Origin: Shigella phage ESh26
Sequence record: ON528736
Strand: one strand, 5' to 3'
Length of the DNA stretch: 64,000 nucleotides
The position numbers and the translations under genes were made by a program. Below are positions 16,099-46,015 of this stretch, piece by piece (within the stretch, counting starts at the first letter, position 1; every line of letters begins with the position of its first letter). Below the pieces are notes generated by a model. The model did not search any database. It had not been told where the DNA came from and saw nothing but the letters and a program-made list of their open reading frames with translations.

Positions 16099-16126
16099 TA
16101 AAAAAAGGGAGAGCCGAGGCTCTCCC
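16099..16126 (-). terminator. Rho-independent terminator upstream of the motA promoter
   Basis: GGGAGAGCC-(2 nt)-GGCTCTCCC inverted repeat followed on minus strand by a 7-U run. Confidence 0.7.
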
Positions 16127-16132
16127 TAAAAA

Positions 16133-16282
16133 TTACTGCATGACTGTGATAACTGTCATGATAACACGTTGAATTCCGAATGCAAGAAGACCTCCTGCTA
16201 CAGCTGGAACAACACCTAAACCCGCCAGTAAAATGCTACCAGATACTAATGCAGCGCTTGTAATACCTATAAATGGACTCAT
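16133..16282 (-). CDS. Small hydrophobic membrane protein (49 aa)
   Basis: ORF below cutoff; ATG overlaps gene 52 stop (ATGA); MSPFIGITSAALVSGSILLAGLGVVPAVAGG...; ends 7 nt before terminator. Confidence 0.4.
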   Translation of the reverse strand: MSPFIGITSAALVSGSILLAGLGVVPAVAGGLLAFGIQRVIMTVITVMQ

Positions 16283-17607
16283 TTGATTTCCTCTAAATCT
16301 TTGGTGTATTCTGTAACTACATCAGTAGTTTTCCAATATTCGTTTTCTTCTTTTTTAGATTTAGCTTCTTCAGCAAGTTTCTTTGCTTCGTCGGAAGTCA
16401 TATGAAAAATGTTCATTCCAACTAGTTTATCAACATAAGAAGAATACATATCAATTTTAGAAAGTTCTTCTGTCAGTTCTTTACGAGTTTTACCTTGTAC
16501 AACAATTTCACCTGAAATTACTTTCTTAATGAAATGTGCCTTGGCAAAGGCTAAACGAAATGCTGATTCAGTTTCTTTGATTTTGTTATCAATTCGTTTC
16601 TGAACATAAGTTTTACGAACTTCAACGAAGTCTTTGATTAAATCAACTACGTTATCGTAAACTTGCAGCTTTCCTTTCTCATTAATAACAGTAATATTCT
16701 GGGAACGACGCTCAATCAACCCGAAGTCTTTCATAATTTTCGCGTGACGTTCTTCTTCATTATCGCTCAAAGAGTATTCTTTGCGGAATTTAACTTTGAA
16801 GCCAAAACCATGCTCACCACAAGCATCATCCCACGTAATGAAGCCTTTATCTTCAAGCGGATCTAAGATTTTACTCACATAAGTTTCACGATCATACTTA
16901 TACGGAATCTCAGTGATATTCATTTGAGTTCGTGAAGTAAACTTGTACGTTCCACGAATTTCATATTGACCGTCAATTTCAACGACTTCACCACGAAATT
17001 CTGGGAATTCTACCTTCGGTTTAGTTACTTTCTTTCCTTGAAGAGCTTGTAGTACAGCTTTCTTGACAGAAGAAACACTATGAGGAAGAATGTAAGTTGC
17101 ATAACCAGTTGCAATACCGGAAACACCGTTAAGAAGAACAGTAGGAATAATAGGCAAATAGAAAGCAGGCGGAATGTGTTCTTTATCTTGATGTACCGGA
17201 GCATATTCAGTATCTTTATATACGCTATAGAAATTTTTACTTACACGAGCAAAAATATAACGACTTGCCGCTGCTTTTTGAACGGTACGAGAACCAAAGT
17301 TTCCTTGACCATCTAACAAAGGAAAGTTATTATTCCAAGTATTAGCCATCAAAGCACCGGCGTCTTGTGCAGAGTTTTCACCATGATGATATCCAAGGTC
17401 CGCTACACCACCTGCAATAGAAGCGAGTTTGTGAAACTTATCTTTATTTCCTCGTGCCAAATCAAGAGCTCGAGCAATAACAAATCGTTGAACTGGCTTA
17501 AATCCATCAATCATATTTGGGATAGCACGATTTTCAACCGTGTACATAGCATAAGCCAATGCTTCATTATCAATGATACTTTTTAAATCGCGATTATTCA
17601 GTTGCAT
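16279..17607 (-). CDS. 52: DNA topoisomerase II medium subunit gp52
   Basis: 442-aa ORF MQLNNRDLKSIIDNEALAYAMYTVENRAIP... GyrA-like N-terminus; size as T4 gp52. Confidence 0.92.
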   Translation of the reverse strand: MQLNNRDLKSIIDNEALAYAMYTVENRAIPNMIDGFKPVQRFVIARALDLARGNKDKFHKLASIAGGVADLGYHHGENSAQDAGALMANTWNNNFPLLDGQGNFGSRTVQKAAASRYIFARVSKNFYSVYKDTEYAPVHQDKEHIPPAFYLPIIPTVLLNGVSGIATGYATYILPHSVSSVKKAVLQALQGKKVTKPKVEFPEFRGEVVEIDGQYEIRGTYKFTSRTQMNITEIPYKYDRETYVSKILDPLEDKGFITWDDACGEHGFGFKVKFRKEYSLSDNEEERHAKIMKDFGLIERRSQNITVINEKGKLQVYDNVVDLIKDFVEVRKTYVQKRIDNKIKETESAFRLAFAKAHFIKKVISGEIVVQGKTRKELTEELSKIDMYSSYVDKLVGMNIFHMTSDEAKKLAEEAKSKKEENEYWKTTDVVTEYTKDLEEIK

Positions 17608-17611
17608 AAAT

Positions 17612-17752
17612 TTACCATACTAGTGAATGTAGTGCCATAATAACATCAGAAATGAAAAGCACGACTTGAATTAATCCGAACATTACTCCATAATATAGTG
17701 CTACTAATAAAGTAGCAAGGGCTAATGAATAGCCCAAGATTTTCTTAATCAT
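17612..17752 (-). CDS. Small hydrophobic membrane protein (46 aa)
   Basis: Hand-translated: MIKKILGYSLALATLLVALYYGVMFGLIQVVLFISDVIMALHSLVW; overlaps upstream ORF end. Confidence 0.4.
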   Translation of the reverse strand: MIKKILGYSLALATLLVALYYGVMFGLIQVVLFISDVIMALHSLVW

Positions 17753-17903
17753 TAGTAGATAACAACACAAATGTTAAATATGCACACATACCCTGGGCTA
17801 AAGCTTGTGAAAACACACTGCTAGCATCGATACAGATAGTTAAAACACATGCTACTATCCAACAAACAAATGAAATAACTCCTAATAATTTTGCGATATT
17901 CAT
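17745..17903 (-). CDS. Small hydrophobic membrane protein (52 aa), possibly the ac homologue
   Basis: Hand-translated: MNIAKLLGVISFVCWIVACVLTICIDASSVFSQALAQGMCAYLTFVLLSTND; T4 ac is a ~51-aa membrane protein at this locus (from memory). Confidence 0.4.
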   Translation of the reverse strand: MNIAKLLGVISFVCWIVACVLTICIDASSVFSQALAQGMCAYLTFVLLSTND

Positions 17904-17910
17904 ATTTTCC

Positions 17911-17991
17911 TCACTGGCGTCCAAAGACGCCTTTTGTTTTAAGATTGTTACGATAGAACTGCATCACATGTTCGTTATGGAAATTACTCAT
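17911..17991 (-). CDS. stp: Stp peptide (26 aa; modulator of host EcoprrI/PrrC anticodon nuclease)
   Basis: Hand-translated [26 protein letters not shown], matching the T4 Stp peptide as remembered; ATG overlaps upstream stop. Confidence 0.8.
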
Positions 17992-18157
17992 ACACACCAC
18001 ACATTTTGCATAAACGTTCAAAACAGATAAATCCGCCACCTACACACATCACGACAGCCACATTATCATTAAGAGGTAGACCTAAAGCCGTAAAGATTCC
18101 AGTCAATGTGAATAAGGCTAAAACTAATAGGTAACCCATTACAAATAGAGCTTTCAT
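17984..18157 (-). CDS. Small hydrophobic membrane protein (57 aa)
   Basis: Hand-translated: [57 protein letters not shown]; ATG overlaps ndd stop (TAATG). Confidence 0.4.
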
Positions 18158-18612
18158 TAGTATGCCTGCAAAACAAATTTAAAGTTATCAGCCAACATAC
18201 GGTTCATTTCTTCAAGCGTTTGATACTCAGAATGATGATTACGAGTAAACGCCAAAGCTAACTGACCTTTTCCAAATCCTGTCGTCAAAGGTTTCATCTT
18301 AGAAGTAGGAAGATAAAATACTGTGTATGGAACATTGTTATTTGCAATAGTACGCGCAAGCTGAGACCGACGCTGACGAATATGACTTAGAACTGCACTG
18401 AACCCTTGTTTAGAACGCTGATTACCTACATAAAATCGTGCAGATACACACGGACTATCAAATGGACCACCAAATTTGCTCACTAAAAAGTAAAATCCAG
18501 GGTTAGACAAAATGTCTTTATGCGGAGTTCCAAAAACCCATTCACCGCCCTTGATTGTACCAATAACAGTTGCGCCTGCATTATTCAAATCAGTAACAGT
18601 CATATATTTCAT
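18157..18612 (-). CDS. ndd: Ndd nucleoid disruption protein
   Basis: 151-aa [36 protein letters not shown]... recognised as T4 Ndd. Confidence 0.9.
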
Positions 18613-18672: not shown

Positions 18673-18888
18673 TTAATCGTCGCAGTCGACGCTCAATTCC
18701 CAAAACTCTTCTACGGTATAAGTTTCAGTATCATTTTCAATACAGAAACGTTCATTGCTGTTGTTTGCTAAAGTAGCATTAACTGTCATTTTCTCGCTAG
18801 TGCTCTTAAGAGGTGAAATACGAATTAACTGATCACCATTATCTAAGCAAAAAATTTCACCAACTTTTACATCTTTAAAAATTTTCAT
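18673..18888 (-). CDS. Hypothetical protein (ndd.x)
   Basis: 71-aa ORF. Confidence 0.5.
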   Translation of the reverse strand: MKIFKDVKVGEIFCLDNGDQLIRISPLKSTSEKMTVNATLANNSNERFCIENDTETYTVEEFWELSVDCDD

Positions 18889-19003
18889 AATTCACCTCAG
18901 GGAGTATAAAATCCAAATGCAGTTGTTGACCATCCCATCCAATACGGAAAATTTGCACCAACGTAAAACATGAGAATATAAAACCAACCACTCAGCAAAT
19001 TTA

Positions 19004-19222
19004 TCATTTTACACCATTCCAAATTGTTTCAACCACAGATTTTAAGCCATTTTGATGAATGTCCATTCCGACAACCGCCATCAAATAAATTCCAACTACA
19101 ACTGAACCTAAGGCAAAAATCAGCATGAAAATGAATAAAGCTGGAAAAATATTATCGAAAAACCATTTAATAAATGTAAAAGCACTGCGTTTACGCTTCA
19201 TATTTTCCTCACATAAATCCAA
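19004..19222 (-). CDS. Hypothetical membrane protein (ndd.x)
   Basis: 72-aa ORF with one strongly hydrophobic helix (FPALFIFMLIFALGSVVVGIYLMAVVG). Confidence 0.45.
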   Translation of the reverse strand: MDLCEENMKRKRSAFTFIKWFFDNIFPALFIFMLIFALGSVVVGIYLMAVVGMDIHQNGLKSVVETIWNGVK

Positions 19223-19322
19223 AGTAAGCGTTTAATACATCAATCATTAAAACGATTGGGAATATACTCAAAACTATTAATATTATAACTACATTCCATA
19301 TAGCTTTAACAATCTTTTTCAT
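19209..19322 (-). CDS. Small hydrophobic membrane protein (37 aa)
   Basis: Track ORF 19209..19418 starts non-ATG inside 5'UTR; ATG at 19322 follows GGAGG SD and gives MKKIVKAIWNVVIILIVLSIFPIVLMIDVLNAYFGFM. Confidence 0.4.
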   Translation of the reverse strand: MKKIVKAIWNVVIILIVLSIFPIVLMIDVLNAYFGFM

Positions 19323-19350: not shown

Positions 19351-19380
19351 ATAATACCACAGAGGAACAGTCTTGTAAAC
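19351..19380 (-). promoter_or_regulatory. T4-type early promoter
   Basis: Minus strand GTTTAC-18 nt-TGG-TATTAT, then UTR with GGAGG SD before ATG at 19322. Confidence 0.6.
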
Positions 19381-19596
19381 AACTTTTTAAAAATATTCGT
19401 AATAAATGTGAATACCAATCACCACTGCCGAAACTTGCGCAACCCACCATGCACAAGCAATAAGTACAGAATTCAAAATTTTCATAATAACCTCATTACA
19501 AAAGTAAATATTAAACAAATTAATGGAATACTAACTAACCAAACAAAACACCACCACAATGAACTCATAGTTCAATCTCAACGATTTTCATTTTAC

Positions 19597-19803
19597 TCAA
19601 TAATCTGCTAAAAGATTGACGATTGCATCACGAAGACACTTATTCGCAATACGTTTAAGAGCAATTTCAGTTTCTGGAGCATTTTGAATAATCATTGAAT
19701 TCAATTCAGCCTCAGCAAACTGAAGTTCTTTAACTAATTCAGCTTTATATTTTCCTTGCCCTTTCTTAGCTTTTGCTCGTTTTAATTCAGCTGTAGTAAA
19801 CAT
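19597..19803 (-). CDS. Hypothetical protein (68 aa; denB-downstream)
   Basis: Track ORF 19597..19911 begins at TTG inside the UTR; ATG at 19803 (MFTTAELKRAKAKKGQGKYK...) follows the cassette SD ggagaataaa. Confidence 0.5.
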   Translation of the reverse strand: MFTTAELKRAKAKKGQGKYKAELVKELQFAEAELNSMIIQNAPETEIALKRIANKCLRDAIVNLLADY

Positions 19804-19844
19804 TTTATTCTCCAAATCCGTATCAGTTGATAGTTGATAGTTGT

Positions 19845-19874
19845 ATAGTACCACAGTCCTTGTGGTATGTAAAC
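19845..19874 (-). promoter_or_regulatory. Early promoter (cassette copy B)
   Basis: Minus strand GTTTAC-18 nt-TGG-TACTAT; promoter and UTR near-identical to copy at 46920-46983. Confidence 0.65.
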
Positions 19875-19892
19875 CGTTTTGTGAAAATTTTT

Positions 19893-20450
19893 TTAAATGG
19901 AAAGATACCATCCGTTGTAGTTGCTTTTTCTTACAACCTTACGAAGGTCTTCTCTATCACCGATGAACTTCGGAGTGTACTGGATGACACCTGGGTGAAT
20001 TTCTTTAGTGTTGAATATAATTATACAGTCAGCGACCTGATGATTCAGAATGGGCCCTAGATTTATTCCAGAACCGTATGGATACTCTCCGCTGCATCCT
20101 GTTGTTACAGAAATCCAACGTGAGTCAGTTTGATGTGTCTTAACTTCTACACGAAGCCCGCAGTATCTTGGATGCGCCAATACATCCCATGCGTATGTAT
20201 ACGGGTCATTAACATCCTCTTGGCCTTTGTTAACATACCCGCTTAGCCAATCTGCTACAAAAAACTCTGCGTACACCGCGATACGACATCTTTCGATAAC
20301 TTCTGCTTTATCCTGGTTCGGGTTTTGTTTTAAAGAGTATCTTGCTGTATCAGCAATTTTGACCTTCATTTCACTAGTCAAGTCACTGTTCGATAGGGTA
20401 AATGTCGGAATCTGAAATAGTCTCTGTAAACCCGGATTCGTTTTCTGCAT
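19893..20450 (-). CDS. denB: Endonuclease IV (DenB), cytosine-DNA-specific
   Basis: 185-aa ORF MQKTNPGLQRLFQIPTFTLSNSDLTSEMKVKIAD... recognised as T4 DenB. Confidence 0.9.
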   Translation of the reverse strand: MQKTNPGLQRLFQIPTFTLSNSDLTSEMKVKIADTARYSLKQNPNQDKAEVIERCRIAVYAEFFVADWLSGYVNKGQEDVNDPYTYAWDVLAHPRYCGLRVEVKTHQTDSRWISVTTGCSGEYPYGSGINLGPILNHQVADCIIIFNTKEIHPGVIQYTPKFIGDREDLRKVVRKSNYNGWYLSI

Positions 20451-45865: not shown

Positions 45866-46015
45866 TCAATTGATACATTCATATTTAACTTGTAACAGTA
45901 ATAAACCCCAACCTATAATAAGTGTCGGAATCATACAAGGAACCGTTACGCTATAGTATATACTTATTATAATCATCAAGATTAAAAGCAATACTGCTAA
46001 AATTTTGCTTTTCAT
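45866..46015 (-). CDS. Small hydrophobic membrane protein (49 aa)
   Basis: Hand-translated MKSKILAVLLLILMIIISIYYSVTVPCMIPTLIIGWGLLLLQVKYECIN; ATG overlaps imm stop (ATGA). Confidence 0.35.
   Translation of the reverse strand: MKSKILAVLLLILMIIISIYYSVTVPCMIPTLIIGWGLLLLQVKYECIN

Follow-up and report, generated by a model that had tools for sequence, protein, structure and literature searches.

Four small genes between ndd and gene 52 of a T4-like phage: stp, ac, 52.1 and a predicted membrane-hairpin gene absent from T4

Gene content and junctions of the interval between ndd and gene 52

The window, by which we mean the whole 64,000-nt stretch of DNA that was analysed, is a T4-like Tequatrovirus mosaic whose best-matching record across 22 kb, at 96.9%, is Shigella phage SH-1. 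All genes in the part considered here are encoded on the minus strand, and the interval between ndd (18612..18157) and gene 52 (17607..16279) holds four closely packed tiny ORFs, exactly where the original prediction had placed them. The following features were assigned in and around this interval, together with one more distant small ORF:

19482-19568, minus strand: ndd.6, T4-type small ORF upstream of ndd
19387-19485, minus strand: ndd.5, T4-type small ORF upstream of ndd
19209-19322, minus strand: ndd.4, T4-type small ORF upstream of ndd
19004-19201, minus strand: fused ndd.2a/3, T4-type small ORF upstream of ndd
18897-19007, minus strand: ndd.2, T4-type small ORF upstream of ndd
18673-18888, minus strand: ndd.1, T4-type small ORF upstream of ndd
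18157..18612, minus strand: ndd, nucleoid disruption protein, 151 aa (Pfam PF06591, E=2.7e-88, and T4 annotation)
17984..18157, minus strand: ORF57, predicted two-helix inner-membrane hairpin of 57 aa ending in CGVYE (PHROG 5941)
17911..17991, minus strand: stp, 26-aa hydrophilic peptide (PF08133, E=2e-21; phrog_6763; T4 comparison)
17916..17931, minus strand: hairpin GGCGUC-UUUG-GACGCC within the 3' end of stp (folding, dG -13.6 kcal/mol)
17745..17903, minus strand: ac, predicted two-helix membrane peptide, 52 aa (phrog_2501, E=1e-24; T4 comparison)
17612..17752, minus strand: 52.1, hydrophobic peptide, 46 aa (PF24129/DUF7396, E=3.5e-23; phrog_3595)
16279..17607, minus strand: gene 52, topoisomerase II medium subunit, 442 aa (PF00521, E=1.4e-76, and T4 annotation)
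16133..16282, minus strand: motA.1, 49-aa hydrophobic ORF that overlaps the gene 52 stop and is the last gene of the unit (phrog_3487, T4 annotation)
16106..16127, minus strand: terminator-like hairpin followed by a T-run (sequence scan)
45866-46015: PHROG 3610 ORF, located between imm and gene 42

Of the five junctions in the interval, three are stop/start overlaps. The ndd and ORF57 genes overlap by 1 nt in a TAATG, in which the ndd stop codon TAA shares bases with the ORF57 ATG, while overlaps of 8 nt connect ORF57 to stp (ATGAGTAA) and ac to 52.1 (ATGATTAA). The stp and ac genes are separated by a 7-nt spacer after the TGA with a strong Shine-Dalgarno sequence (GAGGAAAA), and a spacer of 4 nt lies between 52.1 and gene 52. 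The earlier description of four overlapping ORFs therefore applies to the ORF57/stp and ac/52.1 pairs and fails for stp and ac. A recognisable Shine-Dalgarno sequence was not found for 52.1. Shuffled controls were more structured than the overlapping junctions; weak structure is what one would expect of initiation regions, and the observation is suggestive only. Very close packing of the TAATG and ATGAxTAA type implies that ribosomes leaving one gene probably restart on the next; judged from junction geometry alone, translation is thus probably coupled along the cluster.

Consensus scans pointed to early-promoter-like sites at 19873..19845 and 19379..19351; matches to the sigma-70 consensus were not significantly enriched over shuffles, and no MotA box was found inside the cluster. 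The strong terminator-like hairpin at 16127..16106 after motA.1 is the probable end of the transcription unit. T4 with the saDelta9 deletion, which takes out 52.1, ac, stp, ndd, ndd.1-6 and denB, is viable with about 50% yield and loses its stimulation of phosphatidylglycerol synthesis (PMC6071114). A literature search on ribosome profiling of T4 small proteins returned nothing relevant. The additional small hydrophobic ORFs that had been noticed elsewhere in the window are real and of T4 type: those at 16133-16282, 19209-19322 and 45866-46015 correspond to motA.1, ndd.4 and the PHROG 3610 ORF, and the region of unlisted candidates at 19470-19590 covers ndd.6 as well as the start of ndd.5.

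Stp, Ac, 52.1 and the ORF57 family

The T4 RefSeq annotation lists ndd, stp, ac, 52.1 and 52 in the same order and with the same overlaps. Three of the four ORFs (stp, ac and 52.1) are already known as annotated T4 genes, and ORF57 is the only one absent from T4; it has itself been deposited as a hypothetical protein and catalogued as PHROG 5941. In a four-way DNA alignment, ORF57 came out as an insertion of exactly 166 nt relative to T4; it separates the TAA of ndd from the ATG of stp, has ATGA at both borders and preserves the coupling geometry. In T4, stp is coupled straight to ndd (TAATG), whereas in the window it is coupled to ORF57 via ATGAGTAA.

The 26-aa ORF matched PF08133 ('Anticodon nuclease activator') with 75.3 bits against a cutoff of 25, over residues 1-26 of 26, and phrog_6763 with E=4.4e-21. 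Its product is hydrophilic (GRAVY -1.03) and identical to T4 Stp, in line with the original assignment; the identity includes the N-terminal 18 residues, which are implicated in the interaction with EcoprrI and are critically needed for Stp function (PMC3014915). Stp, a soluble peptide, inhibits the type Ic restriction enzymes EcoprrI and EcoR124I and unmasks the PrrC tRNA-Lys anticodon nuclease in prr+ hosts, and PrrC is countered by T4 polynucleotide kinase and RNA ligase 1 (PMC3014915), so that the link to EcoprrI/PrrC had been drawn correctly. Because the two sequences are identical, the Stp of the window would be expected to share type Ic inhibition and PrrC activation. The hairpin at the 3' end of stp has a 6-bp GC-rich stem (-13.6 kcal/mol, z = -2.8) and lies just before the ac ribosome-binding site. 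Both the hairpin and the downstream TGAGGAAAATATG junction are common to the window and T4, which differ in the loop: UUUG in the window versus UUCG, in the C(UUCG)G tetraloop form, in T4.

The 52-aa ORF had been called ac-like and is Ac itself. It matched phrog_2501 over residues 1-51 (E=1e-24), occupies the position and frame of T4 ac and is identical at 50 of the 51 T4 residues, including D26-A27 at the predicted turn and G38; it differs by I13V and by an extra Thr before the C-terminal ND. The ac gene is a classical T4 gene whose loss leads to acridine resistance, and E. coli that expresses Ac becomes more sensitive to acriflavine and ampicillin (10.1101/2025.06.30.662393). Infected cells accumulate acridines when Ac is present. 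According to a hypothesis put forward in a 2025 preprint, Ac is a two-helix membrane hairpin that blocks AcrAB-TolC efflux; the preprint reports that replacement of G38 by Arg gives resistance and that a common variant with the additional Thr, to which the Ac of the window belongs, is still acridine-sensitive in phage PP01 (10.1101/2025.06.30.662393). A 2026 PNAS paper takes the Ac/AcrAB-TolC idea as an assumption (PMC13250531).

The 46-aa ORF, 52.1, matched PF24129 with 81.9 bits against a cutoff of 27 over residues 1-46 of 46, and it differs from T4 52.1, likewise 46 aa long, by one substitution; the 8-nt overlap with ac and the 4-nt gap to gene 52 are found in T4 as well. Members of the family are 44-46 aa long and conserve an LF motif at positions 32-33 and the motif 'ISDVI'. 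Hydropathy analysis revealed a single long hydrophobic stretch in 52.1 (residues 4-46, GRAVY 1.68), and two such stretches each in Ac (GRAVY 1.41) and in ORF57 (Kyte-Doolittle, GRAVY 1.34), which agrees with the original description of all three as membrane peptides. We infer that Ac is a two-helix inner-membrane hairpin and that ORF57 and 52.1 are small helical peptides of the inner membrane. The neighbours of stp had also been described as uncharacterised; this is accurate for the function of ORF57 and 52.1, but ac is a classical acridine gene with a proposed action on AcrAB-TolC, and 52.1 is an annotated T4 gene.

ORF57 gave a full-length match to the phrog_5941 profile (E=2.1e-27, residues 1-57 of 57). 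Along the family alignment, a basic N-terminus is followed by helix 1, a G-x-P-x-N/T-D/S turn, helix 2, an (F)ER(L/I) motif and a short tail ending in GV.K/E. Apart from the start, L10, G26, P28, E47, R48 and G54 are kept in at least 90% of the sequences. An AlphaFold2 model built on a 4-sequence alignment contained helices at residues 2-24 and 31-52 with a loop between them at moderate confidence (pLDDT 71). ORF57 is thus predicted to have two transmembrane helices with a conserved Glu-Arg following helix 2, and the positive-inside rule would give an N-in/C-in hairpin with the conserved Glu-Arg ... Gly tail in the cytoplasm.

Using tblastn, ORF57 homologues were found in 245 phage records, comprising phages of Escherichia, Klebsiella, Enterobacter, Serratia, Kosakonia, Erwinia and Edwardsiella from several Tevenvirinae genera, and the annotations place most of them next to ndd among the matches listed. 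Family members are 57-61 aa long; sequences from different genera share only 31-70% identity, and yet their conserved residues are retained. When 1.84 billion representative proteins were searched with the family profile, only about 11 clusters were recovered apart from three spurious repeats, all of them phage peptides between 47 and 61 aa long, and a word-indexed protein search gave only 3 matches. ORF57 had no match in Pfam or NCBIfam and no meaningful sequence match in the PDB, and a Foldseek comparison of the AlphaFold2 model with the PDB retrieved generic helical hairpins only, with E above 1. The family appears to be confined to T4-like phages.

Identical ORF57 proteins (100%) occupy the same place between ndd and stp in Escherichia phage PinkRuby (XNS39888.1) and in vB_EcoM-101117BS1 (QZI79388.1), both assigned to PHROG 5941. 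PinkRuby, 101117BS1, Sf24 and ime09 are 99% identical to the window over the interval and carry ORF57 as an annotated "hypothetical protein", and such near-identical phages have annotations for each of the four ORFs. The JS98 RefSeq record leaves ORF57 unannotated. Annotation pipelines are inconsistent on these sub-60-codon ORFs.

Reading-frame conservation and variation among relatives

For the comparative analysis, 36 ndd loci from IMG/VR were combined with T4, three GenBank loci and the window, and codons were aligned per family. In each of the four families, no relative had a stop in the proposed frame, compared with 0.2-6.8 stops per sequence in the five alternatives; the proposed frame also had the lowest dN/dS of the six. 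The median Nei-Gojobori dN/dS of the proposed frame, calculated with many saturated pairs excluded, was 0.49 for ORF57, 0.52 for ac, 0.40 for 52.1 and 0.06 for stp; the values of 0.4-0.5 for the membrane peptides represent moderate constraint only. Four of the other five frames had a dN/dS of 0.73-2.8. The antisense frame that shares wobble positions gave 0.12-0.65, but contained 1-2 stops per sequence. Stop-free frames with the lowest dN/dS argue that the frames are conserved and under purifying selection, and on this comparative evidence the four tiny ORFs are genuine protein-coding genes. Missing conservation of the frames in close relatives was one of the outcomes that the original prediction had named as refuting it; the proposed frames are open in all of them, and on this point the prediction is not refuted.

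Long stop-free antisense stretches were also considered as possible genes and rejected: they are broken in relatives and mirror only the constraint on the sense strand.

Across relatives, the interval follows a general order of ndd, optional ORF57, optional stp, zero to two copies of ac, an optional 'GxWxP' family (46-55 aa, phrog_9347), an optional 43-44-aa family, 52.1 and gene 52, with junction gaps of mostly -1, -4 or -8 nt. ORF57 was present in 25 of the 37 analysed loci, 52.1 in 34 and stp in 17. Where ORF57 is missing, stp directly follows ndd (12/12 loci). Where it is present, its start lies within 1 nt of the ndd stop, usually overlapping it, in 23 of the 25 loci, and in L024 and L025 an ac-like gene intervenes. 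52.1 is always immediately upstream of gene 52, with a spacer of 1-11 nt where measured, and three loci (L013, L033 and L040) have gene 52 without 52.1. The arrangement that includes ORF57 is ancestral-looking across Tevenvirinae yet rare among Tequatroviruses. Only 20 of the 568 phage records matching the 801-nt region show the same contiguous arrangement, and ORF57 at an identity of at least 90% is encoded by only 21 records.

The ORF57-stp segment is 92-100% identical between Dhakavirus IME341 and the window, whereas identity drops to 52-63% over most of ndd and to about 80% over gene 52, and the gene at the ac position is unrelated. These identities clearly point to horizontal exchange of the ORF57-stp segment between genera, separately from ndd. 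In addition, stp with its 3' hairpin and TGAGGAAAATATG is almost invariant before whichever gene comes next. Some Tequatroviruses contain a true ac paralogue (37% identity, same PHROG), which is inserted as another 166-nt block.

The term tandem array in the original description does not hold in the sense of paralogous genes. Profile-profile comparison by hhalign among the ORF57, Ac, 'GxWxP' and 52.1 families gave probabilities of 0.2-0.6%, and this lack of detectable kinship identifies the interval as a mosaic of unrelated cassettes and not an array of paralogues. An all-vs-all BLAST without composition correction had merged ORF57 with 52.1 and Ac with 'GxWxP', a grouping that hhalign shows to be an artefact of hydrophobic composition.

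Interpretation and comparison with known systems

Taken together, the interval very probably represents the downstream portion of a polycistronic unit that is early and non-essential, in which four genuine genes form a mosaic of unrelated single-gene cassettes. The unit would run from ndd.6 through ndd, ORF57, stp, ac, 52.1 and gene 52 to motA.1 and the terminator, and its conserved stop/start and ribosome-binding-site junctions would be the places at which T4-like genera have acquired, lost and traded single-gene cassettes. By analogy with Ac, we tentatively propose that ORF57 and 52.1 may each bind and modulate a host inner-membrane protein during early takeover, as accessory, non-essential factors. 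The genes are real but ordinary for T4-like phages, which makes the original interpretation largely right and its novelty overstated; a role of ORF57 and 52.1 in host takeover or exclusion, as it suggested, would be plausible.

A more specific version of this suggestion is that ORF57 and 52.1 serve in superinfection exclusion or anti-defence, like Imm/Sp or inhibitors of membrane defences. Both are small membrane peptides encoded in a dispensable early region shared with the anti-restriction gene stp, and the presence/absence polymorphism and horizontal exchange of ORF57 are typical of counter-defence genes. However, similarity to known exclusion or anti-defence proteins was not detected in Pfam, PHROG, NCBIfam or the PDB or by Foldseek, there are no reported phenotypes, and 52.1, which almost all loci possess in well-conserved form, does not behave like a typical arms-race gene. 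We therefore consider this explanation unlikely. Quite unlikely, too, is a scenario centred on ORF57, which occurs beside ndd more often than stp does. ORF57 would here be an early effector that has escaped recognition, either working together with Ndd or directed at an inner-membrane target conserved in Enterobacterales, and it would have been lost in T4 and most Tequatroviruses, leaving stp in the coupled slot. If true, the T4 reference genome would have hidden a conserved takeover function of the subfamily.

A partnership with Ndd in particular, in which the ORF57 hairpin is made in step with Ndd and helps to move the host nucleoid to the envelope, could account for the start of ORF57 at the ndd stop in nearly all loci, for the adjacency of most listed homologues to ndd and for the conservation of the cytoplasmic Glu-Arg ... 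Gly tail. The adjacency is weak evidence because the gene order of the region is conserved anyway, and it is interrupted by the ac-like gene in L024 and L025. Moreover, the classical nucleoid-disruption protein is the Ndd of T4, a phage that, like most Tequatroviruses, has no ORF57, and the ORF57-stp segment has travelled from genus to genus without ndd; such a partnership is very unlikely. Similarly doubtful is the possibility that the small ORFs, 52.1 especially, matter mainly as translated leaders that feed ribosomes to the next gene, here gene 52. The missing Shine-Dalgarno sequence of 52.1, its 8-nt overlap with ac, the short distance from its stop to gene 52 in every locus that has it and the unstructured junction regions would all fit a leader. 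Nevertheless, the amino-acid sequences are under purifying selection with conserved motifs (LF and 'ISDVI' in 52.1), the length of 52.1 is steady, and gene 52 occurs without 52.1 in three loci, which leaves a mere leader role with little probability.

Tandem duplication, by which the hydrophobic peptides would be diverged paralogues with one common function, draws on their similar size and hydrophobicity, on the uncorrected BLAST grouping and on the true duplication of ac in some phages, but it is highly improbable given profile-profile probabilities below 1%, the compositional origin of the BLAST grouping and the different conserved motifs. That ORF57 is no gene but a chance open frame in an insertion remnant, as its absence from T4, its lack of annotation in JS98 and the few database proteins called for it might suggest, is hardly credible for a frame that is open in every homologue examined, with its length and residues kept across genera and a dN/dS of 0.49.

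Comparative evidence backs these ORFs of fewer than 60 codons as real genes, one of which, ORF57, looks ancestral in Tevenvirinae although the T4 reference lacks it. The locus also illustrates cleanly how single-gene cassettes are exchanged at junctions of translational coupling, and ORF57 and 52.1 are candidates for studies of small-membrane-protein function beside Ac.

T4-type genomes contain hyperplastic regions and undergo modular shuffling, for example of promoter/stem-loop 'PeSL' cassettes. The interval resembles these in that single small ORFs are gained, lost and swapped between genera at short conserved junctions. It differs in its junctions, which consist of stop/start overlaps plus a ribosome-binding site shared within a single operon; the borders of ORF57 are ATGA microhomologies, with neither a promoter-like site nor a hairpin, and ORF57 is thus distinct from a PeSL cassette. 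At the level of the peptides, a comparison can be made with AcrZ of E. coli, a small membrane protein with a single helix that acts on AcrB and assists the pump. The cluster's predicted membrane peptides would resemble AcrZ in their size class of about 50 aa and their membrane location, and Ac also in its proposed action on AcrAB-TolC. The difference is that AcrZ has one helix and aids the pump, whereas Ac is proposed to have two helices and to block it.

Exchange and insertion around stp

The segment of the Tequatrovirus window that carries stp and ORF57, which encodes a predicted two-helix membrane peptide of 57 aa, is 92-100% identical (17911-18157) to its counterpart in Dhakavirus IME341 (locus L038, 2941-3184), whereas the flanking ndd is 52-63% identical between the two phages. 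This contrast indicates that a module of about 250 nt, comprising ORF57 and stp, was exchanged recently between genera. In some Tequatroviruses, a second and divergent paralogue of ac is present, which has 51 aa (37% identity) and falls into the PHROG of ac. It is inserted between stp and ac as a stretch of 166 nt, with a repeated ribosome-binding-site sequence at both ends:

L002, 1898-2053: ac paralogue
L003, 1732-1887: ac paralogue

This paralogue and ORF57 are both present in Escherichia phage vB_EcoM-101117BS1.

Hairpins in stp and ORF57

17916-17931 (-): GC-rich 6-bp hairpin within the final codons of stp

Its loop reads UUUG in the window but UUCG in T4 and most relatives, and the hairpin is followed by an invariant TGAGGAAAATATG, whichever gene comes next. 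This RNA element may be partly behind the conserved GVFGR C-terminus of Stp. A perfect hairpin, GGAGGGG-TTAA-CCCCTCC, was also observed in the ORF57 homologues of related loci L019-L022, within the codons of the inter-helix loop (WEGLTPPP).

Small genes and their annotation

Small genes such as ORF57 are annotated inconsistently among T4-like genomes. In JS98 (L042), both ORF57 (944-1117) and a 53-aa ORF of the 'GxWxP' family (about 1493-1654) are intact and unannotated in the RefSeq record NC_010105. A further small ORF overlaps the imm stop in the window:

45866-46015 (-): 49-aa hydrophobic ORF, PHROG 3610, between imm and gene 42

Its T4 copy is intact (L041, 1728-1877) and is likewise unannotated in RefSeq NC_000866, which has a 153-nt gap at this site.

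Differences from T4 near ndd

19004-19201 (-): single 65-aa ORF, Pfam DUF7248, phrog_2401
19597-19911 (-): 104-aa ORF between denB and ndd.6

At the first position, the T4 reference instead shows a pair of short genes, ndd.3 (26 aa) and ndd.2a (40 aa), whose reading frames differ. Because most relatives also have the single ORF, T4 appears to be frameshifted here, and its ndd.3 probably does not represent a genuine gene. Between denB and ndd.6, T4 carries a 42-aa ORF in place of the 104-aa ORF of the window and other relatives have variants of 87-120 aa, so that this position is another variable spot in the early region that holds the ndd-52 cluster.
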